DNA of 64,000 nt. Origin: Thermoplasmatota archaeon. GTDB taxonomy: Archaea > Thermoplasmatota > Thermoplasmata > Halarchaeoplasmatales > Halarchaeoplasmataceae. A program made the position numbers and the translations under genes. Positions 6,475-47,823 of the stretch are shown here, piece after piece; positions within the stretch are counted from its first letter, which is position 1, and every line of letters begins with the position of its first letter. Below the pieces are notes generated by a model. That model saw only the letters and a program-made list of their open reading frames with translations. It was not told the origin of the DNA and made no database searches. The stretch lies in the NCBI GenBank assembly GCA_036626195.1, contig JAZKSH010000001.1, positions 9,334 to 73,333 of the forward strand. The letters are read 5' to 3'.

Positions 6475-7203
6475 ATGGTTGAAGTACCCGAATCTCATCC
6501 TAGATATGAATCGTTAAAGACTAGGGAGTCGCTGGTGGAAGGGGTCGAGAAGGGGATAACATCCAAGGCCGGATTGATCGCTCACGGGCGTGGAGAGATG
6601 TTCGATTATCTGATCGGCGAGGAGACCGTCAAGCCGGCTGAAAAAGCTGAAAGAAAGGCCGTGGCTGAGATGCTGGAAGCAAAGAAGCCGGTCATCTCGG
6701 TTAACGGCAACGTTGCCGCGCTCGTCCCCGCAGGCATTGTTTCGCTCGCTCAAAGATTGGATGCAAAGCTGGAAGTCAATCTTTTTCATAGGACCGATGA
6801 GAGGATAAAAAAAATAGAAAAAGAACTGAAAGAAAACGGGGCGGAAAAAGTTTATGGAAAAAAGGCTGACGCTAAGATACCGGGGTTGGATCATGATAGA
6901 GCTCTGTGTGACAGGGAAGGGATTTTTTCAGCCGATGCAGTCTTCGTTCCTCTAGAGGACGGTGACAGAACTAAAGCCCTTAAGGATATGGGAAAAAAGA
7001 CCATAGCTATCGATCTGAATCCACTTTCTAGGACCGCTGAAACTGCGGATATAACCATAGTGGATAATATAATAAGGGGGGTTCCGAACATGATCGAGTG
7101 TGAACCTTTTTATGGCGATTTCGATAATGCTGAGAATCTAAGTTCAACCTTAGATCTTATGTGCAAAAGACTAGAATCTTTATCTGAGGAAGTGAGAACA
7201 TGA
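6475..7203 (+). CDS. Archaeal 4-phosphopantoate--beta-alanine ligase (phosphopantothenate synthetase, COG1701/DUF137)
   Basis: N-terminal HPRYESL...GLIAHGRGEMFDYLIGE matches the archaeal PPS family. It is divergent from pcm and overlaps ahcY. Confidence 0.65.
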   Translation: MVEVPESHPRYESLKTRESLVEGVEKGITSKAGLIAHGRGEMFDYLIGEETVKPAEKAERKAVAEMLEAKKPVISVNGNVAALVPAGIVSLAQRLDAKLEVNLFHRTDERIKKIEKELKENGAEKVYGKKADAKIPGLDHDRALCDREGIFSADAVFVPLEDGDRTKALKDMGKKTIAIDLNPLSRTAETADITIVDNIIRGVPNMIECEPFYGDFDNAENLSSTLDLMCKRLESLSEEVRT

Positions 7204-9635: not shown

Positions 9636-9901
9636 TCGATCTTACCACGCTTTTCTACGGTGCGGCACTTCTCTTTGGAATCTCTATCATCGTGTGTGTT
9701 TTCAGGATTTTTTTAGGCCCTACCGCAGCGGATAGAAATGTCGGATTGGACACTATCAACACTCTTGTAGTAGCAATCATGATTACGATGGGTGCTGCGA
9801 TGTGGGAAACGCTTTTCATTGATATAGCCATCGTATACGCCATACTTTCGTTTATAACTACGCTTTTCATCGCCAAATATCTGGAAGGAGGTGTAGATTG
9901 A
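9632..9901 (+). CDS. mbhB: MrpF-like (MbhB)
   Basis: Small three-helix membrane protein with an ATGA overlap onto the previous gene. Confidence 0.6.
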   Translation: MIDLTTLFYGAALLFGISIIVCVFRIFLGPTAADRNVGLDTINTLVVAIMITMGAAMWETLFIDIAIVYAILSFITTLFIAKYLEGGVD

Positions 9902-19527: not shown

Positions 19528-20163
19528 GTGATATTCATGGCTTCAGAAGATAAGTCTAAAGAAGATGCGGGAGATTGGTTCGACGAATTAGATGCCGAAT
19601 TAGAAGAGAAAACATCGGAAGTATTTAGAGACCTAGGAGAGCGGAATTCCAAGATGGCGGAGCTCAATCGACAATTCGTGAAGGACTTCTGGCGCATATG
19701 GATAAGGTTTGAAAAATTGAACGTGCATTTCAGCATGAAGCCTGATCACAGTTCTTTTGCTCGATTTAACGAATTCCCGGAAGATTGGGAGCTCAGAGAG
19801 GATTTTGACTTTTCCAACTTGAATAAAATTGAATTGATGGACAAGACCCAAGAAGACAACAGAACCGGAGATAGCATTGTACTCGAGTATTATTCTGAGG
19901 AGGACACTTTGAAGATAGGACTTTTCTTCGAATACTGCGAGGGGGAACAATATTACAAATACAGCGGTTGGAAGAGGATATTTGCAAGATACTCGCTTTT
20001 CGACGCCGAATTCCCCCTTGATGACGACAAGATGGACGAGTTCCATAATAAATTGAAGAGCGTCGTCAAAAGATGGTACGAATCACATCTGAAGCGGGAT
20101 AGAGACATAGTCCTCCAATATATCGAAGATGAGTTTGAGAAGATAGAGGAATATCCCGAGTAA
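19528..20163 (+). CDS. Hypothetical protein: a stand-alone copy of the C-terminal domain of the giant coiled-coil protein downstream
   Basis: About 50% identical to residues ~1545-1736 of ORF 20418..25628. Shared blocks are FPEDW, FDFS-L, LFFEYCE, RYSLF, KWYESHL. Confidence 0.55.
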   Translation: MIFMASEDKSKEDAGDWFDELDAELEEKTSEVFRDLGERNSKMAELNRQFVKDFWRIWIRFEKLNVHFSMKPDHSSFARFNEFPEDWELREDFDFSNLNKIELMDKTQEDNRTGDSIVLEYYSEEDTLKIGLFFEYCEGEQYYKYSGWKRIFARYSLFDAEFPLDDDKMDEFHNKLKSVVKRWYESHLKRDRDIVLQYIEDEFEKIEEYPE

Positions 20164-20417: not shown

Positions 20418-23400
20418 ATGAGTGATGGAAAACAAAGTAAAGATGAATCAATCGACGAGTTAACCCAGATATCCGAGATAGAAGCCGAAAGAGCCAAAGA
20501 GCTCTGCGAAAATGGTTGTGAATCAATAGATGATCTCATAGACGAAGGGATTGAAGGACTGGTAGATAACTACCAATTTGAGGAAAAAAGGGCATCTGAA
20601 ATATTTAAAGAGGCTAAAGAACTGGAAAAAAAGAGGGTTGAGGAAGAGGAGGGAGGAGAAGTAGGTGAATTGCTAGATGAGATCGATGAGCTCGAGCAGT
20701 CCCTACCAGATTCGGATACCTCTGAAGAAGAAAAAGAATCTAGCGAAGAGAAAAAAGACGAAAAAGAAGGCAAGGGAGATCTGTCAACCCAGATCGAGGA
20801 ACTCGAGAAAGCACTTTCGGAGTCAGATATCGCGGAAGAATCGATAGAAAAAGAGATCGTAGAAAGAAAAAAAGAGAAAGAAAAATTGGAAAAGGAACTA
20901 GAAGAGTTGAAAAAAGAGAGAGACAAGGTCGAAGAAAGGGTTGAGGAATCTTCTGATCAGATATCTAGTCTAAAGGAGAAAAGAGATGAACTTGAAGGAG
21001 AAATAGATGACCTAGAAGAGAAAAAAGAAAAATTGGAAGAAGTCAAGGAAGAACTCAATGACATAGAGAAAGAGATCGACGAAAAGAAAGAGGAAAAAGA
21101 AAGTCTAGAGGAAGAACTCGAAAATTTGAAAGAGGAAAGAGAAGCTCTAGAAGAGAGGGAAAAAGAGTTAGAAAATTACGAAGAAGAATTGGAAGAGAAA
21201 AAGAAAAAAATTAGCGAAAAGGAAAAAGAACTAGAAGATAAAAAAAGTGAACTCGATGAACACGAAAGTGAACTTGAAGAACTAAAAAGCGAAAAAGAGG
21301 AGCTTGAAGATGAAATAGATGAACTGGAAACTACAAAAGATGACCTAGAAGAACTCGAAGAAGAAAAGGAAAATTTGGAAGACGAAATCGAAAGCCTGAA
21401 AGAAAGTAAGGAAAGATTGGCGGAAAAAGAAGACCAACTTGAAGAGTATGAAAATGAACTGGAGAAGAAAAAGGAAAAAATAAGCGAAAAAGAAAAAGAA
21501 CTAGATGACAAAAAAAACGAAATCGATGATTACGAAAGCGAGCTTGAAGAACTAAAAGATGAAAAACAACAGCTCGAAGATGACGTCAATCAATTCTCTG
21601 AGCAGATCTCCGACCTAGAAGACGAAAAAGAGGAGCTTGAAGATAAAATAGATGAACTGGAAACTACAAAAGATGATCTAGAAGAACTCGAAGAAGAGAA
21701 GGAAAATTTGGAAGACGAAATCGAAAGCCTGAAAGAAAGTAAGGAAAGACTGGCTGAAAAAGAAGATCAACTGGAAGAGTACGAAGGTAAATTAGAGGAG
21801 AAAAAAAGTGAACTTAATGAACTAAAAGAGGAAAAACAACAGCTCAAAGACGACGTCAACCAATTCCATGAGGAGATTTCTAAGCTGGAAGACGAAAAGG
21901 AAGAACTTGAAAAGGAGGTCAACGAAAGGAAAGAAGAAAAAGAAAGTTTGAAAGAAGAACTAGAAAGCAAGGAAGACCAAAAAGATAAGTTAGAACGTCA
22001 GGAAAAAAAATTGAAAGAATATAATCAGAAATTAAAAGATAAAAAGGAGAAAATAAGCGAAAAAGAAAAAGAACTGGAAGATAAAAAAAGCGAACTAGAG
22101 GAACACGAAAATGAACTACAAGAACTAAAAGAGGAAAAACAACAGCTCAAAGGCGAGATCAACCAATTTTCTGGACGGGTATCTGATCTGGAAGAGAAAA
22201 AAGAAGGACTTGAAGACAAAATAGAGGAACTAGAAAGGAAAAAAGAAGAGTTAGAAGGACTCGATGAGAAACTCCAGCAGATAGAAAAGAAGATCGATGA
22301 AAAAACAGAAGAGAAGAAAAACCTAGAAGAAGAATTAAAGGATCTGAAAGAGCAGAAAAAGAGATTAAAAGAACGGAAAAAAGAACTGGAAGAATATGAA
22401 GAAGAGTTGGAAGATAAAGAGGAAAAAATAAACGAAAAAGAAAAGGAACTAGAGGGGAAAAGAGAGAAGATCGAGCACCGAGTCGAAGAATTAGAGAAGA
22501 ATAAAACCAAACTTGAGAAGAAAAAAGAGCGACTAGAGGAAAAGAAGGAGGAACTGGATAAGAAAGAGGGTGAGTTAAAAAAGGAAGAAAAAAGGCTAGG
22601 ATCGTGGGAAGATGAGCTTGCAGATAAAAAAAAGAAGTTAGATGAAAAGGAAAAAAAACTAGGAGAGGAAAAAGAAAATCTTAAAGGAAAAGGAAACAGG
22701 CTAGATCTGTGGGAGGTCAAACTCGAAGGGTGGGAAAAGCAGTTGGAAGATAGGTTAGAAAAAATAAAGGAGAAAGAAGAAGAGATCGAAACTCGAGAGG
22801 AAACCCTCACATCAACAGAAGAGGAATTGGAAGAGAAAGATGGAAAACTTCAGGACAAGGAAAAAGAACTCCAGTCTAAAGAGGATTCTCTAGAGAACTT
22901 AAAGAAAAATCTGGAAGAAAAAGAAGAGAGGCTGGAAAAAAGGAAAGAATCCCTAGAAGAGTTAGAAGATGAACTTGAAGAAAAAGAGGATGACTTGGAG
23001 AATTTCGAGGAAAAACTTGAAAACAAGAAGAAAGAACAGGACATAAGAGAGGTGAAATTAGAAGGGTGGGAAAGCCAGCTGGAAGAAAGGGATAATAACC
23101 TATCGGAAAAAGCTGATGCCCTAGAGGGGGAAGAAGAAGAACTTGAAGAAACTAGAGTGCAGCTATCCCAAAAAGAAGAGGAACTTGATGAGTTAGAGAG
23201 TGAACTGAGAGATAAAGAAAAATCATTAGAGGATTTAGAAGAAGAGCTAGAAGAGCGGAAAGAAAGATTGGAAAATTACGATAAAGAGCTACAAGAGAAA
23301 GAGGGCGAATTGGAAGAACGGGAGGAACTATTGGACGAAAAAGAGGAAAAATTGGAAAACAAGGAGGATGAACTAGAAAATTGGGATGGAGAGCTGAAGG

Positions 23401-25628
23401 AGAAAAAAGAAAATCTAGATGAACTGAAAAACGAGCTGGACGAGAGAGAAAAAGAAATAGAAAGCGAGAATCAGAAACTCCAGGAGAGGGAAGAAGAGCT
23501 CGATAAATTAGAGGATGGGTTGGAGTCTAGAGAGGAGGAATTGAATAGCTTTGAAGAAGAGCTAGACGGGAGAGAAGAGGAATTAAAAACCTGGAAATCT
23601 GAACTGGAAGAGAGAGAAGGAAAGCAGGAAGAATTTGAAGAAGAATTAGAAAAACGGGAGAGACGGTTGATAGAACAGCAGAAAAATCTCGACCTCCAGG
23701 AAGTCAAATTGGAGGGATGGGAATCTACTCTAGATGAAAGAGAAAATTCCTTGGACCAAAGAGAAGCAGAGTTAAAGGAAAGAAAAAACGACCTTATCGA
23801 AACTAAAGATGAAGTCAACCAGAGAAAGAAAGAGCTGGATGAATATAGTGATGAACTAGAAGAAAAAGAGGAATCTTTGGAAGAATTTGAAGAGACATTG
23901 GGTGAACGTGAGAGAGAACTTGACGAGAGCCAAAAATCCATCGAAAAAAAGGAGTCTGAATTGAGCCAAAGGGAAGAGGAACTCGATGATTTGAAAGAAA
24001 AATTGGACACAAGGAGAGAAGATATTTCAGAAAAAGAAGATGAGTTACAAAGCTGGGAAAGCGAGCTGGAAGATAAGGAAGCCTCCCTAAAAGAAAAAGA
24101 AAGCAAATTAAATAGAAAAGAAAAAGAGATCGAAGAAGAAAAAAGCGTGCTTGATGAGCGGAAAGAGAAGTTGGAAGAAATAAAAGATGATCTAGATGGT
24201 CGAGAAAAGGAGTTGGACGAGGTCGAGAAAAAATTAGAGAAAAGGGACGGAGAATTGAGATCTTGGGAGGAAGAGTTAGAAGAAAGGGAAAAAATACTCG
24301 ATAAGGAGAGAAACGATCTTGAGGAAATGAGAGACGAATTGGAAAGAAAAGAAAAGAGACTACAGGATAAAGAGAACGAGGTCGACTTTAGAGAAGTTAA
24401 GGTCGAGGGTTGGGAACGGGAGATGGAACAGAGAGCGCAAAAACTCTCTGACAAATCAAAAAGTCTAGACGAAAGGGAAGAGATATTGGCCAAAACTAAA
24501 AATGACCTCGATAAAAGAGAGGAAGAACTTTTAGACCTTGAAGAAGAATTCAGAGAGAAGCAAAAGTCCTTAGAAGCCTTTGAAGAAAAACTTCAGAAGA
24601 ATGAAACCGAACTCGAGGATTATAGAAGCCGATTGGAAAGAAAAGAGGCTGAGATCAAGGAGAAGGATAGAAATCTAGATCAACGTGAGAAAGAGATCGA
24701 TTCCTGGAGAGAGGACTTGGAAGAAAGGGAAGAAAAAATAGAGGAAAAATCTGATGAACTGGATGAAAGGATGGAAAGCCTGAATAAAAAGGAAGATGAA
24801 TTGACAGAGATGAAGGAAGAGTTAGAAGAAAGAGAAAAGAGTTTAGAAGAGGAAAGAGAAAAAATAAGGAAAGACGGGGAAGAATTAGAAAAGGAAAAAA
24901 GCAGGATATCCGAGATGGAAGCGGATTTAGAATCTGAAAAGGAAAAGGTAGAAGAAAAGAAAGCCGAGCTAAAGAGGGAGGAAAAAGAACTCAAAGAGAG
25001 AAAACAAGAGGTTAAGATGAAAAAGGAGGAACTGCTCGAAGTCTCAGAAGATACGGAGGAGAAAGCGAAAAAGATCTGGGAGCATTTCCAGAATGATGAA
25101 AAAATAGACGTGAATATGAAGGAACTGAACAAACAGTTGATAAGAGACTTTATTAGGATATGGAGCAGGTTCCAAAAAGCCGATGCCCACATAGGGATGC
25201 ATCCTGAGCCGAGCTCTTTCGCTGAGTTCATCAGCTTCCCCGAGGATTGGAAGTTCAAAGACGAATTCGATTTCTCTAAATTGAAGATGATCAGGTTGAC
25301 CAAGAAAACCCAATATGAAAATGGAGCTGAAGATGGTTTAATTTTAGATTACCATCTTGACAGTGATAAAGATCTTGTTATGGAATTATTTTTCGAATAT
25401 TGTGAAGAGAACACATACTCACGATCTTGGGGATGGGGGCGAAGCGTGACTAGATATTCTCTGTTTTCTGAAAAGCTCCCCCTTGAAGACGATAGGATGG
25501 GGGTATTCCATGAAGAATTAAAGGATTTTGTTAAAAAATGGTACGAATCTCATCTGACAAAGCATAGGGATCTGATACTCGATTACGTAGAGGACGAATA
25601 CGAGAGGGTGGAAAGTCGCCTTGAGTAG
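20418..25628 (+). CDS. Giant (1736 aa) coiled-coil protein: HhH-like N-terminus, ~1450 aa E/K-rich repetitive coiled coil, conserved C-terminal globular domain
   Basis: A single uninterrupted ORF. The reverse-strand Ser-rich ORFs inside it are frame artefacts. 333-nt tandem repeat units and a recurring EVKLEGWE motif are present. Confidence 0.7.
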   Translation: MSDGKQSKDESIDELTQISEIEAERAKELCENGCESIDDLIDEGIEGLVDNYQFEEKRASEIFKEAKELEKKRVEEEEGGEVGELLDEIDELEQSLPDSDTSEEEKESSEEKKDEKEGKGDLSTQIEELEKALSESDIAEESIEKEIVERKKEKEKLEKELEELKKERDKVEERVEESSDQISSLKEKRDELEGEIDDLEEKKEKLEEVKEELNDIEKEIDEKKEEKESLEEELENLKEEREALEEREKELENYEEELEEKKKKISEKEKELEDKKSELDEHESELEELKSEKEELEDEIDELETTKDDLEELEEEKENLEDEIESLKESKERLAEKEDQLEEYENELEKKKEKISEKEKELDDKKNEIDDYESELEELKDEKQQLEDDVNQFSEQISDLEDEKEELEDKIDELETTKDDLEELEEEKENLEDEIESLKESKERLAEKEDQLEEYEGKLEEKKSELNELKEEKQQLKDDVNQFHEEISKLEDEKEELEKEVNERKEEKESLKEELESKEDQKDKLERQEKKLKEYNQKLKDKKEKISEKEKELEDKKSELEEHENELQELKEEKQQLKGEINQFSGRVSDLEEKKEGLEDKIEELERKKEELEGLDEKLQQIEKKIDEKTEEKKNLEEELKDLKEQKKRLKERKKELEEYEEELEDKEEKINEKEKELEGKREKIEHRVEELEKNKTKLEKKKERLEEKKEELDKKEGELKKEEKRLGSWEDELADKKKKLDEKEKKLGEEKENLKGKGNRLDLWEVKLEGWEKQLEDRLEKIKEKEEEIETREETLTSTEEELEEKDGKLQDKEKELQSKEDSLENLKKNLEEKEERLEKRKESLEELEDELEEKEDDLENFEEKLENKKKEQDIREVKLEGWESQLEERDNNLSEKADALEGEEEELEETRVQLSQKEEELDELESELRDKEKSLEDLEEELEERKERLENYDKELQEKEGELEEREELLDEKEEKLENKEDELENWDGELKEKKENLDELKNELDEREKEIESENQKLQEREEELDKLEDGLESREEELNSFEEELDGREEELKTWKSELEEREGKQEEFEEELEKRERRLIEQQKNLDLQEVKLEGWESTLDERENSLDQREAELKERKNDLIETKDEVNQRKKELDEYSDELEEKEESLEEFEETLGERERELDESQKSIEKKESELSQREEELDDLKEKLDTRREDISEKEDELQSWESELEDKEASLKEKESKLNRKEKEIEEEKSVLDERKEKLEEIKDDLDGREKELDEVEKKLEKRDGELRSWEEELEEREKILDKERNDLEEMRDELERKEKRLQDKENEVDFREVKVEGWEREMEQRAQKLSDKSKSLDEREEILAKTKNDLDKREEELLDLEEEFREKQKSLEAFEEKLQKNETELEDYRSRLERKEAEIKEKDRNLDQREKEIDSWREDLEEREEKIEEKSDELDERMESLNKKEDELTEMKEELEEREKSLEEEREKIRKDGEELEKEKSRISEMEADLESEKEKVEEKKAELKREEKELKERKQEVKMKKEELLEVSEDTEEKAKKIWEHFQNDEKIDVNMKELNKQLIRDFIRIWSRFQKADAHIGMHPEPSSFAEFISFPEDWKFKDEFDFSKLKMIRLTKKTQYENGAEDGLILDYHLDSDKDLVMELFFEYCEENTYSRSWGWGRSVTRYSLFSEKLPLEDDRMGVFHEELKDFVKKWYESHLTKHRDLILDYVEDEYERVESRLE

Positions 25629-25747: not shown

Positions 25748-27061
25748 ATGCAAGAAAAAGAAAAATTCGCGCCCCACATAGAAGATATAAACCGGGCGTT
25801 AAACGGAAAGTTGAGCGAAGATCAGATCGAAGAGGAACTCCGTACCTATACGGAAAGATACGGAGTGCCCTTGGGAAGTGCAAAAAGATCTATCGTCAAG
25901 AAGTACGAGGGAGATCCTCAGGAACTCTATGTCAGTACAGAGAAAGCTATAGAGGATATAGAGGGTAACGAACAGGGTCTTAACCTCAAATGCAGGATCG
26001 TCTCGATAAACGAGAAAGAGATCGAAGTCGACGAGGAACCGAAGCAGATATGGTACGGTATACTCGGAGACGAGACTGGGACAATCCCTTTCACGCTTTG
26101 GGAAGAACCGTCTATCGAACTGGATAAAGGAGATACTATTAAGATAGAGAACGGCTACGCTAACACATGGAACGAGAAACCGCAGGTGAACATCGGTTCC
26201 AAGGCGAGCATAAAGGAAATAGAAAGCGAAGAGGTACCAGATTTCGATAGAGAACCGCAGAAGCTGGATCTGAAAGATATCAGGGAGAACATGAGGAACC
26301 TCGATGTGACCGCGAGAGTAACGTCCATCGAGAAGAAGATAGTTAACGGTCAGGATGACGAGGAAAAAGAACTCTATTCTGGTATCATTGCGGACGAATC
26401 AGGAAAGGCACAGTTCAGCGCGTGGCACGACTTCGGTATAGAACAGGACGACGTGATCAGAGTTAAAGGCGGTTATGTAAGATCCTGGAGAGGTATACCT
26501 CAGTACAGCTTCGACGATAGTGCCGAAGTTGAGTTTTTAGATGACGACGAGTTACCCCCTTCCGAGGAGCTTGATGAGATTTCAGTTTACACCATCTCCG
26601 ACCTCGCTAAAAGAGGCGGGGCCGTAGACGCTATAGTTGACGCGGTAATGATCGATATAAAGAGCGGCAGCGGTCTCATATTTAGATGCCCCGAGTGTAG
26701 AAGAGTTATACAGAAAGGGGCATGCAGGGTACATGGAAAAGTCGACGGTGAACCGGATCTAAGGGTCAAAGGCATCCTGGATGACGGAACAGGCGCATTG
26801 ACGGTGGTAATCAATAAAGAATTGACGGAAGAAGTGCTCGGTTATGACCTTGAGGAAGCCATGGATGCAGCAAAAGACGCCATGAATCAAGAAGTGATCA
26901 GAGATGAAGTGGAAGAGAAGTTGATCGCTCAGCCGTTGCGAGTCAAAGGCAACATCACCAGCGATGACTACGGATTGATGCTGATAGCGGACGAAGTCGA
27001 CTACAAGAGTATAGACGTGGAAGAAGAAGCTAGAAAGATGTTAGATGAGGTGAGAGTATGA
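25748..27061 (+). CDS. rpa: Replication protein A (multi-OB-fold ssDNA-binding protein with zinc ribbon)
   Basis: Repeated OB-fold blocks and a CPECRRV...CRVHGK zinc ribbon. Confidence 0.8.
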   Translation: MQEKEKFAPHIEDINRALNGKLSEDQIEEELRTYTERYGVPLGSAKRSIVKKYEGDPQELYVSTEKAIEDIEGNEQGLNLKCRIVSINEKEIEVDEEPKQIWYGILGDETGTIPFTLWEEPSIELDKGDTIKIENGYANTWNEKPQVNIGSKASIKEIESEEVPDFDREPQKLDLKDIRENMRNLDVTARVTSIEKKIVNGQDDEEKELYSGIIADESGKAQFSAWHDFGIEQDDVIRVKGGYVRSWRGIPQYSFDDSAEVEFLDDDELPPSEELDEISVYTISDLAKRGGAVDAIVDAVMIDIKSGSGLIFRCPECRRVIQKGACRVHGKVDGEPDLRVKGILDDGTGALTVVINKELTEEVLGYDLEEAMDAAKDAMNQEVIRDEVEEKLIAQPLRVKGNITSDDYGLMLIADEVDYKSIDVEEEARKMLDEVRV

Positions 27062-27118
27062 GGGTAAACACCACTCCCTCATCCTTTTTATCGTTAAAAT
27101 CAAACAGGAGGTTTTAAG

Positions 27119-28012
27119 ATGAGTATGATAAATAGAGAAGTAGCTTGGAGAGTGTTCGCTAGAGAGTTCAACGACTCTGACCTGATGTTAGAAGGGGACG
27201 AGGAAAGAGCCCCGAGCTACTTGGTAACGCCGTTAGGAGCCAAGATTAATCGGATATATCTAGTAGGTGTTTTGACAGAATGTGAAAACATAGGGACGGA
27301 GGAAGAACCCATGTGGCGAGCAAGGATTACCGATCCTACCGGAACTTTCTTCGTGTCGGCCGGTCAGTATCAACCCGGTGTAGCGACTGCCTTGGCAAAC
27401 ATGGAGCCTCCTCTTTTTGTGTCTGTGGTCGGAAAGGCCAGCACGTATCAACCTGACGAGGAGACTTTCCTGACCTCTATAAGGGCGGAGATGATCAAAG
27501 AAGTAGATGAGGAACAGCGTGATATCTGGATATTGGAAGCGGCGAGATCCTTAAAAGATAGACTAGAGATCGGCATAGAGGCTTCTAAGATGGAAGAGGT
27601 ATCCGTAGAAGAACTGGTCGATCTCGGTTTTGAAGAAAAATTGGCGGAAGGTTTCAAAAAGGCGTCGGAGCACTACGAATCATCCTCTTTTGAGAATTAC
27701 GAGCGGATGCTGGAGGATTCACTTAGATACGTTCTCCCAGAATACGAGAGTCAATCCATTGAAGATATAGAGAAGGAGGAGAAAGAAGACGAAGATAGAG
27801 ACGAGGAACTCGAAGAATTGATAATCGGCATCGTTTCAGACATCGAAGAAAAAGAGGATCTAGAAAACGGTGTGGAATACGAGAGGGTAAAAAGTGAAGT
27901 CATGGACGAGGAAGATATCAATCAGGATAAATTTGAAGAAGTAGTGAACGACCTGAGATCCGACGGAAGGCTCTACGAACCCGTTTTAGGGAACTTAAAA
28001 GTGATCGGGTAG
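27119..28012 (+). CDS. RPA-associated OB-fold protein (RPA32/RPAP-like)
   Basis: Single OB-fold N-terminal region with an acidic C-terminal tail, immediately downstream of rpa. Confidence 0.45.
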   Translation: MSMINREVAWRVFAREFNDSDLMLEGDEERAPSYLVTPLGAKINRIYLVGVLTECENIGTEEEPMWRARITDPTGTFFVSAGQYQPGVATALANMEPPLFVSVVGKASTYQPDEETFLTSIRAEMIKEVDEEQRDIWILEAARSLKDRLEIGIEASKMEEVSVEELVDLGFEEKLAEGFKKASEHYESSSFENYERMLEDSLRYVLPEYESQSIEDIEKEEKEDEDRDEELEELIIGIVSDIEEKEDLENGVEYERVKSEVMDEEDINQDKFEEVVNDLRSDGRLYEPVLGNLKVIG

Positions 28013-32634: not shown

Positions 32635-33804
32635 TCATATCATGGTCTCTATCTTTTTTTCGAGTTCCTCCGCTGTGATGTCAGAAAGAGATATCTTGGT
32701 CGTTCTTCCCGACCCGTCCGCAAATGTCCTAGTATTCAATATCCCTTCGTCGGAGAGGGACTGCAGATAGTTCCAAAATTGAGTGTGACCTAGTTTCTTA
32801 TTATCCTTTTCTTCACAAACCACCTTATATATCTCCTCTATATCACCCGTAGTGGTATAGGTGGTATTTTTTAAAGCTCTAGTCGCCGCAAGCAGTATCA
32901 TCTTCTCCTGTTCCTTGAGATCCCTCAGTTTCCTCTCGGTTATATGGGGATTGACTTCAGCTTTCGCCGACCTTACATCCTCCGTTGTGACCTCATTTTT
33001 CCCGTTCATCTCAGCGATCAGGCACGATTTCTCCAGCAGCTCTATCCCAAACCTAGCGTCTCCTCTTCCGTCTCCACCTTTGCCGGAAACGTCGGACAAA
33101 AGCCGTATCTTTTCCTCGTCTATCGAGCCGGGATGTAGTGCGATTTCGACCCTCTGTTGGAGTATCGGTAAGAGCTCTTCATTTGTGTACTTGGGAAACT
33201 TCACTCGATTGCTTCTTTTAAATGAACTTCTCGCGCTTTCCTCTAGAAGTTGAAATGCGTTCTTTTGGGATATGAGCAGGATAGATATATTTCCTGCAGG
33301 TTTTAACCTCTCTTCATCGAACCTCGAGAGCAAGTAGATCAGATCCGACCCGTTATTTTGGATGAGATAATCCACCTCGTCCAGTACGATGATAAGATGG
33401 AGATTTTTCTCCTCTATCTTTTTCTTTATGACCTCCATCATCTCCTCTGTAGAGAAGCCCCTATCCGGAAAGCCTTTATCGAAGTGATGGACAACTTTCC
33501 ACATCACTGAGCTGTCCTTTTTCCTTCTCCTGCAGTTCACGAAAACATAATCTATCGTTTTTCCTTTATCTTTAGCCCAATCTTCGAAATCCATACAAAA
33601 TCTTTTGGCGGTTGCTGTCTTTCCTGTGCCGACTGGGCCGTGAAGGAATACGTTCTGAGATACGTCCGAAGAAACGATCCCTCTGAACAAACCGAAGAGT
33701 TTCTGCATCTGGTCTTCTCTATTTGGAAGGTCTTCAGGTATATAGTCGAACGATAGTTTTTCTTGATCTTTGATTATCTTTCCAGTAGATCCTTCAAAGT
33801 TCAT
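32635..33804 (-). CDS. orc1: Orc1/Cdc6 replication initiator
   Basis: AAA+ Walker A LHGPVGTGKTATAKRF plus a C-terminal winged helix. Confidence 0.9.
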   Translation of the reverse strand: MNFEGSTGKIIKDQEKLSFDYIPEDLPNREDQMQKLFGLFRGIVSSDVSQNVFLHGPVGTGKTATAKRFCMDFEDWAKDKGKTIDYVFVNCRRRKKDSSVMWKVVHHFDKGFPDRGFSTEEMMEVIKKKIEEKNLHLIIVLDEVDYLIQNNGSDLIYLLSRFDEERLKPAGNISILLISQKNAFQLLEESARSSFKRSNRVKFPKYTNEELLPILQQRVEIALHPGSIDEEKIRLLSDVSGKGGDGRGDARFGIELLEKSCLIAEMNGKNEVTTEDVRSAKAEVNPHITERKLRDLKEQEKMILLAATRALKNTTYTTTGDIEEIYKVVCEEKDNKKLGHTQFWNYLQSLSDEGILNTRTFADGSGRTTKISLSDITAEELEKKIETMI

Positions 33805-33855: not shown

Positions 33856-34956
33856 TTATACCGTTAGATCGGCCTCACAGACTTCACAGGATTCCGCACC
33901 TTTATCGTTCATATGTTGACAGATAGGACACTCTATCTTATCTTTTTCCTCATCTCTCTCCTTATCTACATTTTCCTCCTCGATATCGTCTTTTTTGGAG
34001 TTGATGCTCTCTAGTCCTTCCTGGATATTTTTACTCAAGTCTTCTACCTCGCTCATGTCTCTCTCCTCTTCTTCTAATTCTCTTTCAGCCTTTATTTTTT
34101 CCTGTTCCATCTCTTCTTTAGAACGTGGTAAGACCGATTCCTTAATGGTTACGTGTTCTCCTGTACTTAGTGAACCCACATATTCCACACTACCTTTCAC
34201 GTCGACGCCGTCCGCTAGGGTTACGCTTCCTCCTGCAGAGATATCCATGACTTCTGAGCTCTTACCTATATCCAGTTCGGAATCACTCTCTAAGGCTCTC
34301 GCGCTGACTTCCTCTCCCATCTGAATTTTTTTAGCGCTTATCAATCCTTTAATCTCGCTGTTGTCCCCTATCTTCACTTCCCCTAGAGGGGATATCACAT
34401 CTCCATCTACTTCGGTGTTTGCTCCCAGCCTTATATCCCCACCGGCCTCCACAGATCCTCTTATCCTGACATTCTCTTCGCCTTCTATCATACCGCTGCA
34501 TTCTATGCTTCCAGAGACAACTGTATCGGGTGAAAGGGCGATGTCCGTACCAGATAATACCGGACCGTTGTTGGACCCTTCTCCTTTATTCTTCATCTTC
34601 CTCATCAGATTTTCGTTCTCCCGGTTCAGCTCTTCCACCTGTTTTTCTAACTCCTGATTTTCATTCTCCAACTCCTGGATTATCTTGTCTTTCCCCGGGT
34701 CCTCTTCTTTCTTTAACTCCTCTTCCATCTCTTCGATCCTTCTTTCTTTCTCCTCCAGCATCTTCTTCTTTTTGTCCTGTATTGCTCTATTCTCCCCTTC
34801 CAACTGCTCGATCTCCTCTTCAAGGCTCTCCTTCTCCTCCCTCAACCGACGTATCTGATCGCGATATTTCTTGAGCTTTGTACGGATATAATCTTTCTCA
34901 TCATCCATAATCTGCACTTCCACATTGATTTTTTTAAAGGTTTCTATAATATACAA
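33856..34956 (-). CDS. Bactofilin-like (beta-helical polymer domain) protein with N-terminal coiled coil and C-terminal zinc ribbon
   Basis: The central region carries hexapeptide-like repeats (VRIRGSVEAGGDIRLGANTEVDGDVISPLGEVKIGDNSEIKG...). The C-terminus is CPICQ...CEVC. Confidence 0.5.
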   Translation of the reverse strand: MYIIETFKKINVEVQIMDDEKDYIRTKLKKYRDQIRRLREEKESLEEEIEQLEGENRAIQDKKKKMLEEKERRIEEMEEELKKEEDPGKDKIIQELENENQELEKQVEELNRENENLMRKMKNKGEGSNNGPVLSGTDIALSPDTVVSGSIECSGMIEGEENVRIRGSVEAGGDIRLGANTEVDGDVISPLGEVKIGDNSEIKGLISAKKIQMGEEVSARALESDSELDIGKSSEVMDISAGGSVTLADGVDVKGSVEYVGSLSTGEHVTIKESVLPRSKEEMEQEKIKAERELEEEERDMSEVEDLSKNIQEGLESINSKKDDIEEENVDKERDEEKDKIECPICQHMNDKGAESCEVCEADLTV

Positions 34957-42185: not shown

Positions 42186-42628
42186 ACGTTCTCTTTGTCC
42201 ACTTCTAAAGTCACCGCGTAGGTCTTTCCGGATTTCCTTATATTGGCCACTTCCGCTTTTTCGACCTTTTCACCTTTCTTATCTAATGCTATGACTTCTT
42301 CGCCTTCATCTGGAACGGGCAAATACTCGTACGGGACCGTCACCTCACACTTCTCTTCGCTGTAACTGCAGTCGATAACGAAGATGGCTAGACCGGGACA
42401 TTCGGTAACGCAGAAACCGCAGCCCGTGCAGGTATCGAAATCTACATCCGGCGTCTCGGTGAGCTCGTCCATCTCCACTGCTCCGAAGGAGCAGGCGGCG
42501 ACACAGGGATCGCAAGGAATATTCTCGACGCACTCCATTACCACCACGGGGCCCTCTTGGAGTCTCTCATCGTCGGGAATTTGAAGATCTTCTTTTTTGA
42601 CCACACCTGTTTTCTCATAATCGCTCAT
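42152..42628 (-). CDS. 2x[4Fe-4S] ferredoxin-domain subunit
   Basis: CDPCVAACS and CTGCGFCVTECP motifs. Confidence 0.6.
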   Translation of the reverse strand: MSDYEKTGVVKKEDLQIPDDERLQEGPVVVMECVENIPCDPCVAACSFGAVEMDELTETPDVDFDTCTGCGFCVTECPGLAIFVIDCSYSEEKCEVTVPYEYLPVPDEGEEVIALDKKGEKVEKAEVANIRKSGKTYAVTLEVDKENVWNVRGLEVIE

Positions 42629-42703
42629 CCGCAGTTCACCCCCTTTGTGATCATCCGCAGATCACCTCTTTTGTGATCGAGGAGGATGGGACGAAGTCCC
42701 CAA

Positions 42704-44140: not shown

Positions 44141-44262
44141 CCGAGCACCGCAATCTCCAACTTGACCAGACCAATAAAAATATTTCCTTTGTGCTAATCC
44201 GAAGCTTTAATATACCTATATTCGATATCAAATTGGATGCCTTCAAAATTGGAAGGGATATC

Positions 44263-47200
44263 ATGAAAGCGGGGCTAAAATCGTGTATTTTCGTTCTTAC
44301 AGCCGTTTTGTTGGTAAGCAATTTTTCTGCTGCAGCACAAGCTTTTTCTGGATCGGTCGAGAGCTCTCCTGATAGTATTGATATGCCTGAAGAATCTGCA
44401 AGTACAGCAGAGGAAGTTGAGATACCAGATAAGAGCGGACCCGATCACGAATCTATCTCCCAAAATATAGAAGTGTTAAGGAAACAATACGAGGCGATAA
44501 AGGAAAGAGCGGAGGAAGTGAGAGAGTCCAAAGAATATTATTTCGATCAAGATGAGAGTTCTGAACAGAGAGACCTTGTGATCCCCGAGGACAGGGAAAA
44601 GCGGGACCCTATCAGGATTGAGTCTAACGAGGAGTTCTCAGAGAAGGCAGAAAATAACAACTGGTCTGGAGATGGTTCTGAAGATGATCCTTATACCATC
44701 GAAGGATACGAGATCAACGGGAATGAGACCGGGTATGGTATATATATAAGAAACGTGACGGATCACTTCGTAGTGAAAGATTGCTCCATATACAATGCTA
44801 CCAATGCTAGCGGTGTAAACTTAGATCCCAATGAGAACAGCGGCATATATCTACAAAACACGTGGAACGGTCATCTAGAGAATAATACTGTTTTCCGGAA
44901 TCATCAGGGCATATATTTGGTTTCTAGCTCAGGCAATACTATATCCAAGAATAACGCTTCTAACAATGCAGCAACCGGTATAAATCTCAGCGAGTCTTAT
45001 GACAATACGCTCGAAGACAACATTGTAGGATGGAACGAAATAGGTATCCAGATATGGCAATCTATCAATAATGAGATAGTAGAAAACATCGTGAAAGGCA
45101 ACGAAGCGAGAGGGATCTCTCTAGACACACAGCTTCTTTCTTTCCCTGGAGCTATTAATAACCAGGTGATCGGCAATGAAATATCCGGGGATGGGTCCGG
45201 TCTCAACCTCGACATTGATTATGGCATCTATATCGGCGCCTTTTCCAATGAGAACCTTATCAGGTCCAATGATATATCCGGGTATTTCTTTGGTATCTAT
45301 GTAGGCCTGCCCTTAAATCAGATCGATCTTCCAACGCCTTCTCCCAGCGGGCTTTTCCCCATATCTCCACAGGATAACACTATCACTGATAACGTAATCC
45401 AGAGCGGTCAAAATCTACTCAATTTCAACCCCTACAGCATCGGGCTCTTCTTTACGGAGAACAATCTCATCGATAACAATACCATGCAGAATGGAGGTAT
45501 CATGATATTGGGTTTGATATTATCGCACTGGAACACCCACACGATCACCGAGGAAAATACTGTCAACGATAGACCTGTGCGTTACTGGAAAGATAGAGAG
45601 GGGGGTGTTGTCCCCGAGGGTTCTGGCCAAGTGCTACTTGGCAATTGTAGTGATGTAGTGATAGAAGAGCATGAGTTGACAGAAGCCTCTGTAGGGATTC
45701 AACTGGGATTCTCAGACGAGAACATCATCCGGAACAACACGTTAGCTGGCGGTGTGCAGGCCATGGGTGTACAGAGTTCGTCGAACAATCTCATCTACCG
45801 TAACGAGTATGAAGAAAATTTTGTAGGTCTTGTGATGTTGTTATCTACCGAGAACGAAATTTATCACAACAATTTCCTCGAAAACATGCTGACCAATGCC
45901 ATGGACTTAGGGATGAATCAGTGGGACAACGGTTATCCTTCTGGAGGTAACTACTGGTCCGATCATGAAGGAAGTGATGAATACCACGGCCCGGAGCAGA
46001 ACACGTCAGGCAGTGACGGCATCATTGACGAACCATATGGAGAAAATTTTACTGACGAGTATCCTCTTAAGGAACCGGTACCTACACCTCATGTGAGGAT
46101 AGAACATCCCCTAGACGGCTCAGCTGTATCGGAAAAGGATGTGACGGCAAGGTGGACTGGCATTTATCGTTTTACAGATTATTTGGAATACGAGATAAGA
46201 TTGGATAGTGGTAATTGGATAGATATGGGGGAGGAAAAAAATTATGATTTCATGGGTCTAGAGGAGGGCCCTCACGATCTTTACGTGAGAGTTGCCGACG
46301 AGGAGGGGAATACTTTCACCAACCGGGCGTCCTTTATCGTAGATGTAACTTGTCCTGATGTACATATAACCGCACCAGAGGAGGATAAGATATTCGAAAC
46401 GGAGAATGTGACGGTGGAATGGGAAGGTATCGACGAGGGCAGCGGTATCGACTTTTATGAGTTGATTCTCGATGGAGAGCTAGAATACCAGGGTAGTAAG
46501 GAACGATATAATTTGACCGGCGTAGAGGACGGAAATCACGAGATAGAAATACGGGCCGTGGATAGAGCCGGTAACGAGGATATCGATGATTTATCTTTCT
46601 CAGTAGATACTACACCCCCAAATATACAGATAGTATCGCCGGAGGAAGGAGAAAAAATCGGTAATGAATCGGTGATAGTTGAGTGGGAAGCTAGCGACCC
46701 GATAGCCGGTGTAAATTCCTTCGAAATCAGGATAGAAGAAGAGGATTGGAGAGATGTAGGATCCTCTTTGAATTATGAATTCACAGGTCTTGAAGATAGA
46801 GAATATACGGTAGAGGTGAGAGCTCTCGATGAAGTAGGGAACAGCGGCATAGATGAGGTGAGTTTTACTGTGAACACCGTTCCTCCGGTCGTAGATATAT
46901 TGCAACCTAGTGAGAGGGAATTGATTGGTGAAGAATCCATAACTATCCTCTGGGAAGGTGAAGGGGAAGGGACGGAAATAGAGTATTATGAAGTCCGAAT
47001 TGATGAAGGTCCCTGGATCGAAGTTGGAATGGATACATCCTATACTTTTGATAATATTGAAGATGGAGAACATACCGTTGGAGTTCAAGCTACTAATGGA
47101 TTGGGGAACGCTGCCATCGACAGGACTACTTTGAAAGTCGATACAACTCCGCCTGAAGTAGGGATTACCACTCCTGAGGAGGACGAAGTGAGGCATACGA

Positions 47201-47823
47201 GTGATGTCGATATCCGCTGGGACGGGAGCGATGAAATCGGCGGTATAGATCATTATGAGGTACGTTTAGAAGGAGATGATTGGATAGATGTGGGAGGTTC
47301 CGAGAGTTATGTATTCTCCGATCTCCAAGACGGGGAGTATACCGCTGAGGTCAGAGCATGGGACAATGCGGGAAACGCTCGGACGGAAAGTGTCAGTTTT
47401 CTTATCGATCTGCCTGAAGAATATACTATAACCGTCGGACCGGTTAGAGATGTGAAAGGGGAGTTCATCGATGATCTAACAGTCACTTTGTTGGTGGACG
47501 GTGAAGAGAAATTGACCTTCGGAGGAGAGAACGGACGTTACAATTTCACCGTGGAGTTGATTTCACCTCCAGACGAGGTCGAATTTGAATATAAGATCGA
47601 ACATGAAGAGCTTGAAGAGGACAAAACGGGATCGTTCTATGGTAAGAATTCCGGCGAAGTGATAATAGACATGCACGGGGCAGACCCGTCCGCTCTCTTA
47701 TTTGCTATAGCTGTAGGGACGATCACGGCTATAATTTTGGGGGCGATAGTTGTTAAAAAGAGAGGAAATTCATCTTCGAAGGAAAGGAAGAATCTTGTAA
47801 AGTTGAAAAAGAGAGATAGATAA
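44263..47823 (+). CDS. Secreted, C-terminally membrane-anchored surface protein with an N-terminal right-handed beta-helix (NosD/pectate-lyase-like) region and six ~85-aa Y_Y_Y/Ig-like repeats
   Basis: Met 44263 is followed by a signal-peptide-like stretch. Many N-x-S/T sequons are present. The repeat unit is W-EG-DE-SGI--YE-RLD---W-------Y-F-GLEDGEH---V-A-D--GN. A C-terminal TM helix is followed by a basic tail. Confidence 0.6.
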   Translation: MKAGLKSCIFVLTAVLLVSNFSAAAQAFSGSVESSPDSIDMPEESASTAEEVEIPDKSGPDHESISQNIEVLRKQYEAIKERAEEVRESKEYYFDQDESSEQRDLVIPEDREKRDPIRIESNEEFSEKAENNNWSGDGSEDDPYTIEGYEINGNETGYGIYIRNVTDHFVVKDCSIYNATNASGVNLDPNENSGIYLQNTWNGHLENNTVFRNHQGIYLVSSSGNTISKNNASNNAATGINLSESYDNTLEDNIVGWNEIGIQIWQSINNEIVENIVKGNEARGISLDTQLLSFPGAINNQVIGNEISGDGSGLNLDIDYGIYIGAFSNENLIRSNDISGYFFGIYVGLPLNQIDLPTPSPSGLFPISPQDNTITDNVIQSGQNLLNFNPYSIGLFFTENNLIDNNTMQNGGIMILGLILSHWNTHTITEENTVNDRPVRYWKDREGGVVPEGSGQVLLGNCSDVVIEEHELTEASVGIQLGFSDENIIRNNTLAGGVQAMGVQSSSNNLIYRNEYEENFVGLVMLLSTENEIYHNNFLENMLTNAMDLGMNQWDNGYPSGGNYWSDHEGSDEYHGPEQNTSGSDGIIDEPYGENFTDEYPLKEPVPTPHVRIEHPLDGSAVSEKDVTARWTGIYRFTDYLEYEIRLDSGNWIDMGEEKNYDFMGLEEGPHDLYVRVADEEGNTFTNRASFIVDVTCPDVHITAPEEDKIFETENVTVEWEGIDEGSGIDFYELILDGELEYQGSKERYNLTGVEDGNHEIEIRAVDRAGNEDIDDLSFSVDTTPPNIQIVSPEEGEKIGNESVIVEWEASDPIAGVNSFEIRIEEEDWRDVGSSLNYEFTGLEDREYTVEVRALDEVGNSGIDEVSFTVNTVPPVVDILQPSERELIGEESITILWEGEGEGTEIEYYEVRIDEGPWIEVGMDTSYTFDNIEDGEHTVGVQATNGLGNAAIDRTTLKVDTTPPEVGITTPEEDEVRHTSDVDIRWDGSDEIGGIDHYEVRLEGDDWIDVGGSESYVFSDLQDGEYTAEVRAWDNAGNARTESVSFLIDLPEEYTITVGPVRDVKGEFIDDLTVTLLVDGEEKLTFGGENGRYNFTVELISPPDEVEFEYKIEHEELEEDKTGSFYGKNSGEVIIDMHGADPSALLFAIAVGTITAIILGAIVVKKRGNSSSKERKNLVKLKKRDR

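Follow-up and report, generated by a model that had tools for sequence, protein, structure and literature searches.

What kind of gene carries near-identical tandem repeats of 333 nucleotides (nt), and how much of what matters in it lies in the repeats? The question is raised by a 64,000-nt stretch of the genome of a Thermoplasmatota archaeon (GenBank assembly GCA_036626195.1, contig JAZKSH010000001.1, positions 9,334 to 73,333), which we call the window and number from its first letter. A first-pass annotation of these letters had noted repeat units of 111 amino acids (aa), and larger super-repeats, inside a giant gene. The gene is real, conserved and fast-evolving, and it encodes a giant helical rod protein. 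In our judgement the flagged region is probably the fast-changing part of this very acidic rod, a protein of halophilic or soda-lake Thermoplasmata in which modules are resized and the rest stays fixed. The annotation's observation thus held in part, and its interpretation found partial support. The repeat phenomenon itself, internal duplication and homogenisation in a coiled-coil gene, is ordinary; the protein family is undescribed, and no account of it was found in the literature. An unbroken heptad rod of 913 residues in an archaeal protein without an ATPase head makes the gene more interesting than its repeat.

Layout of the giant gene and its orthologues

From N- to C-terminus the protein consists of a helix-hairpin-helix-like (HhH-like) head, an acidic linker, a segmented rod, a continuous rod and a globular domain. 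The corresponding features are the following.

20418..25628, + strand: giant gene, 1736 aa and a TAG stop, from the listing of open reading frames (ORFs)
20454..20621, + strand: HhH-like domain, aa 13-68, just below the cutoff of Pfam HHH_5
20790..22313, + strand: segmented rod and length-variable zone, aa 125-632, from sliding-window analysis and Viterbi phase tracking
22314..25052, + strand: continuous rod, aa 633-1545, one unbroken heptad frame of 913 residues (~130 heptads)
25056..25625, + strand: C-terminal globular alpha/beta domain, aa 1547-1736

The rod is composed of 33.5% Glu, 17% Lys and 13% Leu, with hydrophobic residues making up only ~20% and a net charge of -272. Proline is absent from aa 98 to aa 1595 of the protein, a span of 1498 residues. 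Neighbouring proteins are acidic too (Asp plus Glu 17-26%), which is in keeping with a halophile whose cytoplasm accumulates salt.

Syntenic loci were retrieved from Thermoplasmata metagenome-assembled genomes (MAGs) with the C-terminal 190 aa and labelled L001-L015; the names of their records and samples suggest that they come from soda lakes and hypersaline settings, and some carry the label Candidatus Natronoplasma. Orthologues of 1854-1998 aa occupy the same syntenic position in at least six of these loci. The nearest relative is L005, to which L001 is equivalent. A metagenome scan with the C-terminal domain returned a single locus, L015, an independent Joint Genome Institute (JGI) assembly of the L005 population and hence a second assembly rather than a new strain. 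An exact-sequence look-up of the RPA protein encoded in the window gave no record, and hence no assembly with exactly this protein that could have supplied a strain of the same species. Among the related genomes the repeat content differs. A homologue search with the N-terminal 100 aa gave no matches, although orthologues exist in the retrieved loci, a limit of the index searched.

Five degenerate units and one near-identical pair

Gapped protein alignment resolved the repeats into five degenerate tandem units, two of which share a nearly identical core.

20976..22514, + strand: five degenerate tandem units, U1-U5
20976-21290, + strand: U1, aa 187-291, 105 aa
21291-21623, + strand: U2, aa 292-402, 111 aa
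21624-21893, + strand: U3, aa 403-492, 90 aa
21894-22196, + strand: U4, aa 493-593, 101 aa
22197-22514, + strand: U5, aa 594-699, 106 aa
21290..21448, + strand: core copy 1 (in U2), matching copy 2 at 152/159 nt
21623..21781, + strand: core copy 2 (in U3), longest exact match to copy 1 of 51 nt

In a lag scan, the best ungapped self-match of the gene fell at 333 nt, where 152 of 159 nt (95.6%) agree. The units at 21291 and 21624 do lie exactly 333 nt apart, and both contain the peptide that the annotation had quoted, ELED(E/K)IDELETTKDDLEELEEEKENLEDEIESLKESKERLAEKEDQLEEYE. Six of the seven differences between the core copies are synonymous, and the seventh exchanges Glu and Lys. Scored at +1/-4, the pair reached 124, compared with 36 for the next-best lag and at most 24 when the codons of the rod were shuffled 20 times; a score so far above the shuffles indicates that the duplicate is real. 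The description of these two units as almost identical is correct for the 159-nt core. Beyond the first 53 codons, to which the near-identity is confined, nt identity drops to 79% and a 21-aa deletion intervenes.

The proposed series of four units at exact 333-nt spacing did not survive, since only the step from U2 to U3 measures 333 nt. Compared without gaps, 333-nt windows taken from 20958 and 21957 are 41-54% identical to the others in nt and 18-35% in aa, and gapped alignment moves the start of the fourth unit from 21957 to nt 21894. A repeat search gave start-to-start spacings of 270, 333 and 240 nt for four long copies. Tandem Repeats Finder, applied to the whole window with periods up to 500, reported no 333-nt period; within the gene it found only 21-nt periods, which represent the heptad level. 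In the gapped protein alignment U2 and U3 are 89% identical and every other pair of units 45-64%. Nevertheless, the landmarks ETTKDD, SLKESKERLAEKE, KISEKEKEL and VNQF recur in order across the units, whose differences in length are indels of 14, 21 and 21 aa, with modules present or absent.

The age of the pair was a separate matter. Over the 52 codons of the core, synonymous divergence (dS) is 0.27 and non-synonymous divergence (dN) 0.008, giving a dN/dS of ~0.03. The word 'recent' in the annotation therefore calls for qualification. The copies look more alike than their age implies because Glu, Lys and Asp codons offer few synonymous sites. The duplicate is not fresh, and its identity at the protein level owes as much to purifying selection as to youth.

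A segmented rod followed by a continuous one

In the segmented rod the heptads are broken by +3 frame shifts every ~42-110 residues, an architecture also present in L005, L006 and L011. These shifts explain the lengths of the repeat units found in the window and its relatives. Units of 69, 90, 97, 104, 111 and 118 aa all equal 7n+6, i.e. two frame shifts per unit; 80-aa units (7n+3) contain one shift, and units of 184 and 191 aa (7n+2) contain three. AlphaFold2 (AF2), run in single-sequence mode on aa 130-760, predicted an almost entirely helical structure with a pTM of 0.24. The predicted helix breaks had low confidence and fell at non-equivalent sites of the near-identical U2 and U3, giving no support to a discrete folded repeat domain such as the spectrin repeat; the fold-back points of this model are uninformative on topology.

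The continuous rod is of a different kind. Its single frame runs for 913 residues, and the unbroken runs in L005, L006 and L011 measure 916, 889 and 887 residues. Hydrophobicity over aa 700-1545 shows power peaks at 3.5 and 7.0 residues. At the 'a' position, Leu occupies 100 of 121 heptads and Leu, Ile or Val 116 of them. The 'd' position of the same 121 heptads holds Lys or Arg in 69 (57%), Trp in 11, Glu in 10, Leu in 8 and Phe in 5. The rod therefore displays the heptad periodicity and persistent frame of a coiled coil, but it lacks a second core position that is mainly apolar. Identity to L005 by heptad position runs from 87% at a, through 72% at d and at e, 69% at b, 61% at c and 57% at g, to 54% at f. 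This ranking is the one that a helix-helix interface would be expected to produce.

The alternative that bears most directly on these data is a rod that is largely a monomeric, charge-stabilised single alpha-helix serving as a spacer or ruler, with the repeats adjusting the length of the spacer. ER/K single alpha-helix domains, e.g. those of myosin VI and X, are extremely rich in Glu, Lys and Arg, contain no helix breakers and act as spacers or levers. The giant rod resembles them in its low hydrophobic content, in the Lys or Arg residues that fill more than half of its 'd' positions and are flanked by Glu, in its extreme Glu and Lys content, in the long span without proline and in a probable role as spacer or lever. 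However, ER/K helices lack a hydrophobic seam, and the giant rod has one: a conserved Leu stripe, together with Trp, Leu or Phe recurring at 'd' at multiples of seven. An 'a' position that is aliphatic in nearly every heptad, remains in register for 913 residues and is the best conserved of the seven also argues against a lone helix, and the exact conservation of the heptad frame points to a continuous helix-helix interface. A leucine-striped single helix is still a live alternative, to which we give a minor but real share of our belief.

Comparison of the repeat zone among relatives

The giant protein evolves faster than its surroundings. Between the window and L005, the RPA protein is 93.8% identical, the 208-aa protein 93.3% and an MCM-winged-helix-like protein 89.6%. 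The giant protein is only ~67% identical, compared with 90-94% for the proteins that flank it (25748-28012 and 19537-20163). L005 carries a 184-aa insertion in the repeat zone (at window aa 602), after which 961 residues align without a gap, and all length differences of more than 8 aa between the two proteins lie within the segmented rod. Across genomes the length of the N-terminal segmented part varies by 160-260 aa.

Each orthologue with an assembled N-terminal part has tandem repeats of its own, 93-98% identical, at gene nt ~630-2300. Their periods are as follows.

Window: 333 nt
L005: 573, 333 and 552 nt (191, 111 and 184 aa)
L006: 291 nt (97 aa)
L011: 312 and 207 nt (104 and 69 aa)
L009: 354 nt (118 aa)

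The length variability suggested by the annotation is evident from the L005 insertion and from the other periods of L006, L009 and L011. Its suggestion of concerted evolution was likewise upheld, in that copies within a genome are closer to one another than to copies in another genome. Core copies share 95.6% of their nt in the window and 85-92% in L005, but 80-84% when one copy is taken from each genome, and core dS is 0.2-0.4 (0.21-0.43) within genomes versus 0.9-3.8 across the two. At thirteen sites the two genomes show a fixed difference, with all core copies of a genome in agreement. In both genomes, too, the first two ESLKESK cores are 111 aa apart. In our reading, the window and L005 inherited one array from their common ancestor, and unequal recombination or gene conversion has since homogenised its units and changed its size; independent duplication in each lineage after their divergence could also account for the repeats.

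Could strong purifying selection on a functional motif, acting alone on old duplicates, have kept the core identical? The low core dN/dS and a dS of 0.27 would agree with this, as would the second half of the core, SLKESKERLAEKE(D/N)QLEEY, which is conserved between genomes, and a core dS with no significant deficit relative to the remainder of the unit. Evidence to the contrary comes from the first half, which is identical within each genome and different between genomes. Constraint alone cannot yield this pattern, nor the 13 fixed differences, the excess of dS between over within genomes and the distinct periods at 93-98% identity in other lineages. We regard selection alone as an unlikely explanation.

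One of the loci used here, L006 (JBKHKA010000005.1), is titled Candidatus Aenigmatarchaeota, yet it is syntenic with the Thermoplasmata loci and its neighbour proteins are 86-90% identical to those of the window. The bin is probably mislabelled or contaminated.

Reliability of the assemblies

The annotation had warned of assembly collapse or expansion, a concern that proved justified for the gene family and of little weight for the window. The longest exact repeat in the window gene is 51 nt, which ordinary assemblers resolve, so that collapse there is unlikely. Exact repeats reach 276 nt in L006 and 106-117 nt in L005, L009 and L011. The contigs of L002 and L003 start inside the giant gene, those of L008 and L009 end inside it, and L007 contains a 100-N gap. 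Protein databases returned only C-terminal pieces because most database copies are fragments broken inside the gene.

The two assemblies of the L005 population illustrate the point. The GenBank MAG (L001/L005) has an in-frame TAA at 6880-6882 that splits the gene into products of 1665 and 219 aa, where L015 has GAA at 9866-9868 and an intact gene of 1900 aa. The two agree at 99.92% identity over 17,584 nt with zero gaps, and 9 of their 14 mismatches fall in the giant gene. The TAA of the GenBank copy is a false or variant stop codon. In practical terms, this is a place where short-read assemblies of the gene family frequently break and may be collapsed.

These breaks, and the clustering of mismatches in the gene with a false or variant stop among them, are what could be cited for an artefact in the window, i.e. 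a 333-nt duplicate that was mis-collapsed or mis-expanded, or an identity produced by consensus polishing. We consider such an artefact very improbable. The copies differ at 7 of 159 positions and share no exact repeat longer than 51 nt, and a ratio of six synonymous changes to one non-synonymous is the pattern of real evolution, not of polishing. Furthermore, the 5.2-kb frame is unbroken and lies within a contig at least 64 kb long, and L005 shows the same 111-aa ESLKESK spacing, with identical length in two independent assemblies.

Trp-rich motifs of the continuous rod

The annotation had also described a recurring EVKLEGWE motif downstream of the repeats. Four occurrences were confirmed, three exact at aa 766, 878 and 1095 (nt 22713, 23049 and 23700) and one as EVKVEGWE at aa 1326 (nt 24393), preceded in order by W, R, Q and R. 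They belong to four Trp-rich motifs.

22701..22736, + strand: motif 1, LDLWEVKLEGWE, aa 762-773, at the same position in L005, L006 and L011
23037..23072, + strand: motif 2, QDIREVKLEGWE, aa 874-885
23688..23723, + strand: motif 3, LDLQEVKLEGWE, aa 1091-1102
24381..24416, + strand: motif 4, VDFREVKVEGWE, aa 1322-1333

The motifs are spaced by 112, 217 and 231 aa, and 410 aa separate the last from the C-terminus; all of these distances are identical in L005, and subsets of the motifs were found in L006, L007, L010 and L011. The rod has eleven Trp residues, and the distances among them are all multiples of seven. Each motif concentrates extra apolar residues in two heptads (L-x-L-W-x-V-x-L-x-G-W), which would form a local hydrophobic patch. 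The motifs are old landmarks fixed in position, and they could possibly serve as docking or nucleation sites.

The same motif had been taken to define super-repeats, and this claim we rejected. Over aa 700-1540, with lags restricted to multiples of seven, the best 49-aa window matched at 28 of 49 positions, within the 24-30 of a null obtained by shuffling heptads. Flanks are no more alike than shuffled heptads, and the recurring part is limited to a motif of ~12-18 aa.

Chance similarity in low-complexity sequence rich in Glu, Lys and Leu, without any true repeat, is accordingly accepted for the super-repeats, and it gains some plausibility from a rod in which any two segments in the same register are ~31% identical and a repeat search lists dozens of families at 60-70% identity; for the U2/U3 pair and the unit landmarks, with a score of 124 against a shuffle maximum of 24 and rare landmarks recurring in order, we give it next to no credence.

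Comparison with known rod proteins

A divergent SMC, Rad50 or archaea-specific SMC-related protein (ASRP), with the repeats in its coiled-coil arms, might be suggested by NCBIfam scores and by the position of the gene near those for RPA and Orc1/Cdc6, but we hold this identity to be extremely improbable. The SMC_prok_B model gave 211.6 bits against a cutoff of 567, ASRP 196.5 against 300 and the Rad50 models at most 110 against at least 700, with matches split into many stretches within the rod only. Regular-expression searches of the giant protein found neither a Walker A motif ([AG]xxxxGK[ST]) nor a CxxC hook; Cys occurs only at aa 30, 34 and 1662. SMC, Rad50 and ASRP are DNA-associated proteins with an ATPase head, a hinge or zinc hook and two antiparallel arms. 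The giant protein shares the sub-threshold profile matches and none of these parts: its ends are an HhH-like and an alpha/beta domain without similarity to an ATPase, and one continuous frame of 913 residues leaves no room for a hinge. Among 22 proteomes surveyed, SMC, MukB, SbcC and Rad50 had the longest coiled coils of prokaryotes (PMC1322226). The Pfam and NCBIfam assignments to SMC, ASRP, Rad50, the RNase Y N-terminal region and crescentin were all discarded as sub-threshold coiled-coil cross-matches.

Cytoskeletal rods offer another comparison. Crescentin and the Streptomyces proteins FilP and Scy are, like the giant protein, long non-enzymatic rods with a short head and tail and regular heptad discontinuities, and they act as scaffolds. 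The crescentin-type model PF19220 (Rod_CreS) nevertheless scored 24.4 bits against a cutoff of 100, and no sequence homology to crescentin, FilP or Scy was found. In Scy and FilP the repeat measures 51 residues and is hendecad-based, whereas the giant protein has +3 shifts at irregular intervals of 42-110 residues and a main rod of pure heptads. No trace of the hendecad signature was detected, as there is no power near 3.6-3.7 residues and the shifts are +3 (+6 where two merge), not +4.

Spectrin-like repeats, three-helix bundles of ~106 aa with a conserved Trp, were also rejected, given the non-equivalent AF2 breaks and the spacing of Trp by multiples of seven in an unbroken heptad rod; no spectrin family appeared among the Pfam matches of the giant protein.

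Streptococcal M proteins and similar fibrillar coiled-coil surface proteins are helical rods with non-ideal heptads. Homologous recombination alters the number of their tandem repeat blocks, each tens of residues long, and paralogous repeats of one strain resemble each other more than those of different strains. The giant protein shares with them the helical rod, the variation in repeat number and the likeness of repeats within a genome, by analogy and not by homology. M proteins, however, belong to bacteria, where they act in virulence, are secreted and anchored to the wall and face immune selection. The giant protein, which is archaeal, lacks a signal peptide and an anchor and is presumably cytoplasmic; it is 3-4 times longer and has in addition a long invariant rod.

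KfrA proteins measure a few hundred residues, have a helix-turn-helix head and no C-terminal globular domain, and are bacterial and plasmid-borne. KfrA-type proteins are described as cytoskeletal, coiled-coil and plasmid-encoded (PMC7821693). Their N-terminal DNA-binding head and long coiled-coil tail give a layout like that of the giant protein, again only as an analogy. The giant protein is neither an SMC, Rad50 or ASRP protein, nor a crescentin-type rod or a Scy/FilP hendecad rod, nor, by definition, an ER/K helix, given its conserved Leu seam.

Protein ends, upstream paralogue and neighbourhood

Scanned alone, the N-terminus matched Pfam HHH_5 at 26.1 bits (E = 1.2e-5, model positions 2-57 of 57; cutoff 27), and the whole-protein scan gave 22.1 bits. 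Against the PDB it produced weak matches (E = 0.2) to the acidic-repeat HhH domains of NusA.

The C-terminal domain matched no Pfam or NCBIfam family. It belongs to an unnamed Thermoplasmata/Methanomassiliicoccales family of hypothetical proteins of ~204-208 aa, nearly all of them standalone, with matches at E values of 1e-50 to 1e-104; the family has 11 invariant and ~35 nearly invariant columns, and the domain carries its conserved FFEYCE, GW and WYESH residues. A database of 5.8 billion proteins yielded 227 matches to the family, and 57 representatives were found among 1.84 billion. Fusion to a rod of ~1500 aa is restricted to one halophilic clade.

A standalone copy is encoded next to the giant gene.

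19537..20163, + strand: standalone protein paralogous to the C-terminal domain, 208 aa when read from the ATG at 19537 (the mechanical ORF begins earlier, at a GTG at 19528)

This paralogue is 51% identical to aa 1567-1732 of the giant protein (E = 7e-61), and wherever both genes occur, in seven loci, its gene directly precedes the giant gene. The standalone family gene is kept beside the gene for RPA, a single-stranded-DNA-binding protein, across Thermoplasmata. In L012 and L014 it adjoins the RPA gene with no giant gene there, which identifies the giant gene as a clade-specific addition. The C-terminal domain of the giant protein is the product of an old duplication of the neighbour gene. 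The fused domain evolves faster than the standalone copy, at 71-74% versus 93% identity between the window and L005.

The giant gene itself stands beside the RPA gene, with an Orc1/Cdc6 gene ~7 kb away. This proximity hints at a chromosome-related role, as circumstantial evidence.

Some further features of the window deserve mention. A 366-aa protein is encoded beside the Orc1/Cdc6 gene (33856-34956 and 32635-33804, respectively, both on the - strand), ~7 kb downstream of the giant gene; it has a sub-threshold bactofilin match (22.4 bits, cutoff 27.9), and its N-terminal ~120 residues give sub-threshold Pfam matches that are coiled-coil-like in look. Within the giant gene, antisense ORFs of 207-340 aa occur at 22025-22810, 23471-24493 and 24680-25303 on the - strand, most likely because a GAA-rich sense strand leaves few antisense stop codons. 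L010 shows comparable antisense ORFs rich in Ser, Phe and Leu. Elsewhere, a 26-nt tandem repeat of 2.1 copies with 89% match (TCATCCGCAGATCACCCCCTTTGTGA) lies at 42625-42678 between two minus-strand ORFs, and an ORF of 1210 aa at 44191-47823 (+ strand) is very acidic, with 19.7% Asp plus Glu and 6.4% Lys plus Arg.

A fixed-length rod with a variable N-terminal zone

The explanation that we favour, a rod protein whose modules are resized at one end, can be put as follows. The N-terminal third (aa ~125-632) consists of heptad modules separated by 3-residue frame shifts. Unequal recombination or gene conversion between stretches of similar, GAA-rich DNA with a 21-nt periodicity has probably duplicated, deleted and partly homogenised these modules. 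In the window genome the outcome is the five degenerate units of 90-111 aa, with one pair sharing a 159-nt core at 95.6%; each related lineage has made its own high-identity repeats in the same zone. The C-terminal two-thirds is a single-copy, uninterrupted rod of 887-916 residues, conserved in length and bearing four fixed Trp-rich patches.

The protein probably serves as a long cytoplasmic tether or a filament subunit. Taking ~0.15 nm per residue, its continuous part would extend over ~135 nm and its segmented part over up to ~75 nm. At one end the HhH-like head is a putative DNA- or protein-binding module. At the other, the probable partner of the alpha/beta domain is either a second copy of this domain or the paralogue encoded upstream. 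How far the head reaches would then depend on the variable N-terminal repeats. That rod length and Trp positions are fixed next to a zone varying by hundreds of residues suggests a fixed-length element combined with a tunable spacer.

Several observations weigh against parts of this proposal. The 'd' position is mostly Lys or Arg, which is poor for a classical two-stranded coiled coil, so that the rod may have another number of strands. Core dS (7/26.8 sites) shows no significant deficit against the remainder of the unit (9/18.7 sites); for this reason a discrete gene-conversion tract was not accepted as proven, and a single duplication followed by uneven constraint competes with it. Copy numbers in short-read MAGs may be collapsed. 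Finally, the HHH_5 match falls just below the Pfam cutoff, and proteins rather than DNA can be the ligands of HhH domains, NusA being the protein matched in the PDB.

The analysis also gives a first handle on an uncharacterised family of ~205 aa conserved next to the RPA gene. More speculatively, and with considerably less confidence than we place in the resizing of modules, the protein may be the first recognised member of an undescribed, non-SMC family of giant coiled-coil proteins (1,700-2,000 aa) confined to halophilic or alkaliphilic Thermoplasmata, a ruler or tether reaching from DNA to a ~205-aa partner. If this were true, ~130 heptads (~135 nm) with four Trp docking patches would make up a molecular ruler or cytoskeletal tether, which would link DNA, through the HhH head, to a partner from the conserved RPA-adjacent family, with the N-terminal repeats as an evolvable adjuster of its length.

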